The translations under genes and the position numbers were made by a program. A stretch of 64,000 nt of DNA from the sequence record PV683228.1. One strand, given 5' to 3'. The notes below the pieces were generated by a model that saw nothing but the letters and a program-made list of their open reading frames with translations, was not told the DNA's origin and searched no databases. This stretch comes from Escherichia phage EcF-vB. Positions 48,671-49,360 of this stretch are shown piece by piece. How positions within the stretch are numbered: position 1 is the stretch's first letter; each line of letters begins with the position of its first letter.

Positions 48671-49065
48671 AACTTTGGGCTAGTGACTTTGGAACTTTTA
48701 AGTACACTCGTAATGGTTCAATGGTGAGGATTATTGGCAGCCAGATTGTAGTAAGGGGCGATGAGGTTTGTACAAAGTTCACTGTAGAGTTAGCTGAACT
48801 ATCACCTATTACCCGTGCTAAGAATGGGTTTTTCAGGTTCGAGACTTACAAAGTCGATGAGTACGGTCGGTTCAACCCTCTTGGAGAGAGTGGATTAGAT
48901 ATTATTTCTGAACACCCATTGACAGCAGAGCAATTGTCAGGTTATTATAAAACTCTACTTGAAAGAGAGTTAGCAACCCACGAGTGTGAAGCAAAATATC
49001 ACATAGAGCGTTGTGAAACACTCAAAGAAAAGATAAAACTAGCAGAGAGAGGTTTTTATGAATAA
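48667..49065 (+). CDS. hypothetical protein (132 aa)
   Basis: Identical copy at 57151-57549. Confidence 0.5.
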   Translation: MKLWASDFGTFKYTRNGSMVRIIGSQIVVRGDEVCTKFTVELAELSPITRAKNGFFRFETYKVDEYGRFNPLGESGLDIISEHPLTAEQLSGYYKTLLERELATHECEAKYHIERCETLKEKIKLAERGFYE

Positions 49066-49282
49066 TAACAGTCATATTCACGTTAAAGTTGATGTTAGCC
49101 GTTACAGCGAAAATGAGGAATTAGACCTGCAAGATGCTATTCTCTTTGAGGAGAATGGTAATATCCATTTGCATTTTGAAGGTACAAACACATATCTCCA
49201 CAGTGTCAAATATGACTTACCAGCAAAGTATATAGGGATGTTAATAGTATTACATATTCAAACACACAGGTATGCGTGGTGA
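49058..49282 (+). pseudogene. truncated fusion ORF created by about 720-bp deletion relative to arm B
   Basis: Matches arm B 131-aa protein up to TNTYLH, then jumps into the middle of arm B 114-aa protein and frameshifts. Confidence 0.5.
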
Positions 49283-49360
49283 ATCTGTCAAGATATCTTC
49301 TGTAGAAGTTTTTGAGAAACCTAACACACAACTTAAAAAGTATTTAATGAGGAAACTGTA

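Follow-up and report, generated by a model that had tools for sequence, protein, structure and literature searches.

Inverted arms in a FelixO1-like phage contig: a probable fold-back misassembly with residual consensus errors

The locus and its two arms

The window analysed here, a 64,000-nucleotide stretch of the Escherichia phage EcF-vB record (PV683228.1), is by its sequence a Felixounavirus (FelixO1-like myovirus) genome. About 300 phage records match it at 90–97% identity, and it is collinear with finno, REP6 and FelixO1 at 91–98% identity across its length. Genomes of the genus are usually an estimated 84–89 kb long. Followed along the 87,544-bp finno genome, window positions 1–36616 correspond to finno 50810–87544 and positions 36636–51259 to finno 1–15959, after which positions 52246–64000 read from finno 17849 back to 4414 in reverse. 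Finno has a single copy of the locus, which the window passes through twice, once in each direction; in 185 related records, a single uninterrupted stretch accounts for at least 80% of it. A cluster of 26 tRNA genes at 38452–43581 lies beside a DUF2828/vWFA-like gene, and DUF2828 and DUF7788 domains were recognized in a 471-aa protein.

A seed-and-extend repeat search returned 13 collinear inverted-repeat blocks that pair 41150–51344 with 54150–64000. When these were merged by BLAST and global alignment, two arms were obtained, A (41150–52236) and B (64000–53295). The arms do not stop at 51344 but continue to 52236 and 53295, arm A in degraded form. Arm B runs past the end of the window, and 53295–64000 is only its visible part. 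The outer ~10 kb of the arms are 99.8% identical, and the outer ~10.2 kb contain 13 small events together with two structural differences. The features are collected in Table 1.

Table 1. Coordinates of the arms, their junctions and lesions, and of a single-copy gene in the window
Feature	Position	Strand	Remarks
DNA polymerase gene, single-copy	5425–8141	+	Split by a 1-bp deletion at 6399
Arm A, polished part	41150–51386		Corresponds to finno ~4,400–15,959 in forward order; the arm B locus in opposite orientation; continues on its left into the remainder of the phage genome
Thirteen small arm-specific lesions	41323–51326		Arm B deviant at seven sites and arm A at four
1,062 bp found in arm A alone	42934–43995	-	tRNAs and the end of the 471-aa gene; arrangement as in relatives
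Remnant ORF across the 723-bp deletion junction	49058–49360	+	131-aa gene fused in frame to the 114-aa gene
Arm A, raw-quality part adjoining the fold point	51387–52236		Error-ridden reverse-complement copy of 53295–54109
Probable chimeric inverted junction	52237–52245		Arm A stops at ~1211 and the sequence restarts at ~143 in opposite orientation (terminus-oriented genome, Pr103Blw)
Single-copy spacer, 1,049 bp	52246–53294	+	Genuine, well-polished, non-coding, terminus-proximal; 88–92% identity to relatives with few gaps
Arm B	53295–64000		Terminus-to-interior reading of the arm A locus; finno 17,849 down to 4,414 in reverse
723 bp found in arm B alone	56290–57012	-	The 97-aa gene (56470–56763) in full, between the 3' part of the 131-aa gene and the 5' part of the 114-aa gene; arrangement as in relatives
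Arm B deletion junction	62216–62217		Codon ~390 of the 471-aa gene joined to the interior of tRNA-Asp; no flanking homology

Two further observations concern other parts of the window. The long tail-fibre gene (15176–17524) shares 72% amino-acid identity with finno in its N-terminal part, and its region 15850–16737 has no nucleotide match to finno between flanks that are 93–96% identical; judged by this comparison, the divergence is a typical host-range mosaic. At 42% identity to the 72-aa protein of 8627–8842, an extra ORF of 72 aa (8206–8421), located between the DNA polymerase gene and its small neighbour, appears to be a diverged local paralogue.

Differences between the arms

Every one of the 13 small events includes a 1–2-bp indel, and isolated substitutions number zero in 10.2 kb. 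The only three substitutions between the outer arms all lie within 4 nt of an indel; indel plus adjacent substitution is the form of the events at 42438, 49243–49245 and 50095. Homopolymer length changes had been thought to make up most of the small differences. They account in pure form for only 6 of the 13, still above the 18% expected by position (p = 0.018); one further event is a CT-dinucleotide change and the remainder are non-homopolymer 1-bp indels, some of them with an adjacent substitution. The example that had been given, six C residues in arm A at 46865–46870 versus five in arm B, was found as described.

Both arms were then compared site by site with finno, GEC_vB_B1 and GE_vB_B3. 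Eleven sites could be resolved, and at every one of them the allele of finno and GEC_vB_B1 stands in one arm and a private lesion in the other. The deviant arm is B at seven sites (41323, 44163, 44224, 45066, 45169, 45427 and 49592, in arm A coordinates) and A at four (42438, 48560, 49243–49245 and 50095); sites 46869 and 51325, not resolvable against the relatives, were left out of this count. Deletions represent 9 of the 12 events for which the deviant arm is known or inferred. Natural divergence has another character: the window and finno differ by 301 substitutions to 1 indel in 8.2 kb, against 13 indel events and no isolated substitution between the outer arms (Fisher's exact p = 3.7e-22). 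Two of the homopolymer deletions recur in GE_vB_B3, the duplicated ends of which differ from one another by about 300 gaps, and this recurrence points to a systematic, context-dependent error.

The consequences for the genes are as the earlier note had listed them. The endolysin (lysozyme) gene is frameshifted in arm A and intact in arm B, owing to a run of four rather than five A residues at 48560. Tblastn searches with the proteins of a related phage likewise reproduced the 72-aa and 143-aa genes as broken in A and intact in B, and by tblastn the 193-aa, 123-aa and 471-aa ('Ro-like') genes are intact in A and broken in B. No gene is broken in both arms.

Genes present once in the window served as a control. 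In addition to the deletion that splits the DNA polymerase gene, 1-bp deletions were found in the ligase gene (9829) and in two structural-module genes (30343, 32554 and 32651). Since a phage with its polymerase broken in this way could not be viable, the contig must carry uncorrected consensus errors. Lesions occur at 0.64 per kb per copy in the arms compared with about 0.12 per kb in the unique region, a higher rate that would be expected if reads mapping equally well to both arms were down-weighted or split during polishing. That the lesions bear the signature of long-read consensus error, a suspicion already voiced in the earlier note, is strongly supported by the indel-only differences, by the private lesions at 11 of 11 sites and by the damage to single-copy genes. 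The ligase gene (9453–10742) is spread over three frame segments in the window, and in finno itself it is annotated as two overlapping coding sequences (60044–60262 and 60201–61337); at least one of its frameshifts may therefore be a recurrent error or a genus-wide feature, not one specific to this contig.

The quality of arm A changes close to the fold point. Differences between the arms amount to 0–3 per 250 bp as far as 51150 and to about 34–57 per 250 bp from 51650 inward; the rise, from about 0–2 to about 40–55, falls between 51150 and 51900. Over the 850 bp of arm A at 51387–52236, identity to arm B is 85.5%, with 53 substitutions and 62 indel events (47 insertions totalling 55 bases and 15 deletions totalling 18 bases). 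Compared with finno, this part has 76.6% identity and 38 gap openings in arm A versus 90.8% and 6 in arm B. No long ORF is found in this part of arm A, whereas its counterpart in arm B keeps intact ORFs of 223 and 143 aa. Natural divergence was considered for the degraded 850 bp and rejected on these grounds, namely the 62 indel events and the missing ORFs, beside intact ORFs and relative-like sequence in arm B. Going by its errors, the segment has the profile of one uncorrected long read and not of diverged DNA. Insertions and substitutions outnumber deletions in the raw zone and the polished regions are deletion-biased, an error spectrum that does not single out one sequencing platform.

The two structural differences are of a different order. 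Arm A jumps at 49203/49204, where arm B has 723 extra bp, so the estimate of about 720 bp absent from arm A was close to the exact size given by the alignment. Translation confirmed the path of the jump, from TNTYLH of the 131-aa gene into the middle of the 114-aa gene with loss of the 97-aa gene: arm A reads ...HFEGTNTYLH, then S, then VKYDLPAKYIGML. A separate small error at 49243–49245 shifts the frame of the remnant ORF after the fusion. The 131-aa, 97-aa and 114-aa genes are conserved phage genes that match phrog_4348, phrog_4385 and phrog_4040, families with no assigned function. The description of arm-specific structural loss was right as regards these 723 bp of arm A and incomplete as regards arm B, which has a 1,062-bp deletion of its own, corresponding to arm A 42934–43995. 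Six tRNA genes are affected, namely tRNA-Asp, of which most is lost, followed by tRNA-Tyr, Asn, Met, Glu and Pro; the gene for the 471-aa DUF2828/DUF7788 protein loses its last 81 codons.

Neither deletion junction recurs among the relatives: that of arm A was found in 0 of 209 related records and that of arm B (62216/62217) in 0 of 252. A search for flanking direct repeats at 62216/62217 found none. At 49203/49204 the pentamer ATGTC occurs at both edges, but arm A does not have the A, so that a clean microhomology deletion is not possible there. Recombination between flanking direct repeats was rejected as the source of both deletions, there being no usable repeat at either junction. Homopolymer error cannot account for the 723-bp difference, which is structural. 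Template skipping in the backbone reads may have produced both deletions as artefacts; the 'direct' chimeras formed in phi29 amplification skip template and resemble deletions (PMC9984789). Both lengths are multiples of three, which for the two together has a probability of about 1 in 9 by chance, and the 723-bp fusion is in frame, a weak hint of real, viable variants.

The fold point and the physical end of the genome

At 52236/52246 the contig jumps by about 1.07 kb and then runs in reverse over the same locus. The ~5-nt sequence AGCCT is common to both sides of the join, as read in error-rich sequence. None of 255 related records spans the junction, and the listed alignments break at 52246. 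The exact 45-mer across the junction had no match in the viral, genome and metagenome contigs scanned, and the junction region gave no megablast match among E. coli complete genomes and plasmids. A 44-mer taken from a divergent gene likewise had no match in those contigs, and an exact-protein look-up with the 377-aa tail protein gave none either.

The position of the join relative to the genome end could be derived from related phages. In Pr103Blw a direct terminal repeat of 581 bp is annotated at 1–581 and 87841–88421. Four records (Pr103Blw, H12, CRP22 and D4) have one common first base, which by the Pr103Blw annotation is the start of the direct terminal repeat, and position 143 of each aligns to window position 52246; the unpolished GE_vB_B3 contig begins at about that common first base. 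By this alignment, the arm-B side of the junction would lie ~142 bp from the left physical terminus, as mapped for related phages. We estimate that a random breakpoint would fall so near a terminus in roughly 0.3% of cases for an 88-kb genome, which points to an event at the end of a molecule.

By the Pr103Blw annotation, the spacer between the arms would begin inside the terminal repeat, of which the window contains one partial copy (Pr103Blw positions ~143–581 at 52246–~52706). Throughout its length (52246–53294) the spacer is dense in short direct repeats of the TGTTAA/CTTGTTAA type, and three copies of a hairpin-forming motif, AAAGCCTTATAAAGGGCTAT, are present at 52248, 52306 and 52328. 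These repeats and hairpin motifs may be candidate recognition sites for packaging or replication in Felixounavirus. Direct terminal repeats have been reported in a genome announcement for phages that include members of Felixounavirus. A genome with hairpin telomeres or inverted terminal repeats was considered and rejected, given the direct terminal repeats in that announcement and in the Pr103Blw annotation, and the asymmetric 1-kb spacer at the fold point.

Origin of the inverted arms

Taken together, these results make it very probable that the arms arose by an inverted chimeric or fold-back long-read misassembly in a FelixO1-like phage, with residual consensus errors left in the contig. What marks such a misassembly was found here: a locus that is otherwise single-copy, a private junction, a single-read error profile, differences of the indel type, and errors outside the repeat. 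We observed directly how the contig runs, that its junction is unique, what error profile it has, in which direction the lesions point and that single-copy control genes are frameshifted. We infer that a laboratory or software step lies behind the chimeric join, and the cause of the poorer polishing of the arms than of the unique region is likewise a matter of inference.

On this explanation, a palindromic or inverted chimeric read would have formed at or near the left physical end of the genome, and the assembler would have extended the contig along that read, so that the contig turns and returns over the same ~11 kb, and on beyond the window, as its reverse complement. Both arms would then represent one real locus, with reads mapping to either arm polishing both to about 99.9%. 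Independent and imperfect polishing would leave different 1–2-bp indel errors in each arm, which appear as 'arm-specific frameshifts', and the 850 bp of arm A beside the junction would have stayed at single-read quality. The 723-bp and 1,062-bp gaps would be private structural differences beyond the repair of window-based polishing, originating either in backbone reads with artefactual deletions or in rare deletion variants in the lysate. Some features fit this explanation less well. As a palindrome the junction is imperfect, with arm A ending about 1,070 bp short of the start of arm B; simple read-through of template and then complement would require an additional loss of sequence to give such an asymmetry, and this is the main loose end. 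The change from polished to raw sequence is abrupt, which a coverage threshold in the polisher could account for. The two deletions of ~1 kb are also atypical as basecalling errors; both are multiples of three.

Chimeric reads of this kind are well documented. Inverted-repeat chimeras make up 0.18–7.33% of reads in nanopore ligation libraries (PMC13141652), and inverted chimeras are the commonest type after phi29 amplification (PMC9984789, PMC6218980). The palindromic nanopore chimeras (PMC13141652) resemble our case in that the halves come from opposite strands of one locus, the junction is at the end of a molecule, the sequence at the turn is poor and related genomes have no biological counterpart; they differ in that the halves here are offset by ~1,070 bp and do not meet at the same end. 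Chimeras of phi29 multiple displacement amplification (PMC9984789; Pacasus, PMC6218980) share with it an inverted junction and a chimeric distance on the kilobase scale (~1,070 bp here, where the usual distance is under 10 kb and mostly 0–5 kb). Their overlap is typically 5–8 nt (PMC9984789; PMC6218980), comparable with the ~5 nt read here in error-rich sequence, and their 'direct' form could also explain the 723-bp and 1,062-bp gaps. However, nothing in the formation of such chimeras would place them 142 bp from a physical genome end, and the two deletion junctions here have essentially no overlap sequence.

A record of the same genus provides a further comparison. GE_vB_B3 (MG969406.1, UNVERIFIED), an independent public assembly of a Salmonella phage of Felixounavirus, also carries one locus twice in a single record with many small indels, and has two homopolymer deletions in common with the window. 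At 109,375 bp it is about 22 kb too long, and it contains a direct end overlap of 22.7 kb with 97.6–98.7% identity and ~300 gaps, which indicates an untrimmed, unpolished assembly. Its duplication is direct and not inverted, and although it has two matching places, it was rejected for this reason as a second case of the inverted structure.

The 723-bp and 1,062-bp deletions might instead be real minority variants in the phage stock, even with an artefactual join and small indels that are mere errors; the duplicated arms would then have offered the assembler two slots for one locus, in which such variants were caught. We consider this possible but lean against it. Both deletions are clean, with flanks identical save for scattered 1–2-bp indels, and their lengths and the in-frame fusion of two small genes would suit it, as would the nature of the lost genes (small hypothetical proteins, tRNAs and the C-terminus of the DUF2828 protein), which are plausibly dispensable. 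The fact that neither junction is found in any related record argues against a lineage polymorphism and leaves room for fresh mutants. However, neither junction is flanked by a direct repeat or shows real microhomology, no linked substitutions mark the supposed haplotypes, and a backbone read with an artefactual deletion explains the data equally well.

That the fold-back itself is a real molecule seems to us very unlikely. A resected left end would have folded onto itself at a short inverted microhomology and served as primer for synthesis, giving a spacer-containing palindromic head-to-head replication intermediate or a defective genome. Two arms around a single-copy spacer of 1.05 kb do have the anatomy of fold-back inversions, and like biological fold-back inversions and hairpin-primed palindromic dimers, the structure combines a palindrome, a short unique spacer near a DNA end (142 bp from the mapped physical terminus) and microhomology at the join, here the short common AGCCT. 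In contrast to the biological cases, one side of the join is supported at raw-read quality only; 850 bp at single-read quality implies at most one or very few supporting molecules, chimeric-read artefacts give the same anatomy (PMC13141652, PMC9984789) and nothing similar occurs in related records (0 of 255). Slightly less probable again is a combination in which a real head-to-head molecule, produced by snap-back ~140 nt inside the direct terminal repeat, was accompanied by genuine spontaneous deletion mutants in the same lysate. We give almost no credence to a genuine, inherited inverted segmental duplication with reciprocal gene loss. The different set of broken genes in each arm, with an intact copy of every gene in one arm or the other, is what such a history would leave, but the substitution-to-indel ratio (0 isolated substitutions versus 13 indels between the copies) effectively refutes it. 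Disabling lesions are not confined to duplicated genes and also hit single-copy essential genes, a raw-quality zone lies at the junction, the duplication is not present in more than 250 relatives, and with 11 kb or more added, the genome would by our estimate be larger than is usual for the genus. The 'reciprocal decay' of two real copies proposed in the earlier note is not supported, on the same evidence: no isolated substitution separates the arms in 10.2 kb, the duplication is found in none of the relatives, lesions of this type also occur in single-copy essential genes, and the arm next to the fold point has the quality of raw reads.

If the fold-back were real, it would be a documented case of such a structure forming at the end of a phage genome, a result of modest specialist interest, and together with genuine deletion mutants it would give some insight into errors of end processing and the plasticity of the genome in a phage that uses direct terminal repeats for packaging. 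Under the preferred explanation, a fold-back misassembly with residual consensus errors, the case matters mainly as quality control. It provides a recipe for recognizing an artefact from sequence alone, consisting of indel-only differences between copies, a raw-quality fold point, a private junction and frameshifted single-copy essential genes. Gene calls in the 41–64 kb region and at 6399, 9829, 30343, 32554 and 32651 need polishing before they are used in annotation or comparison, and neither a long inverted duplication nor pseudogenisation in this phage should be read from the contig.
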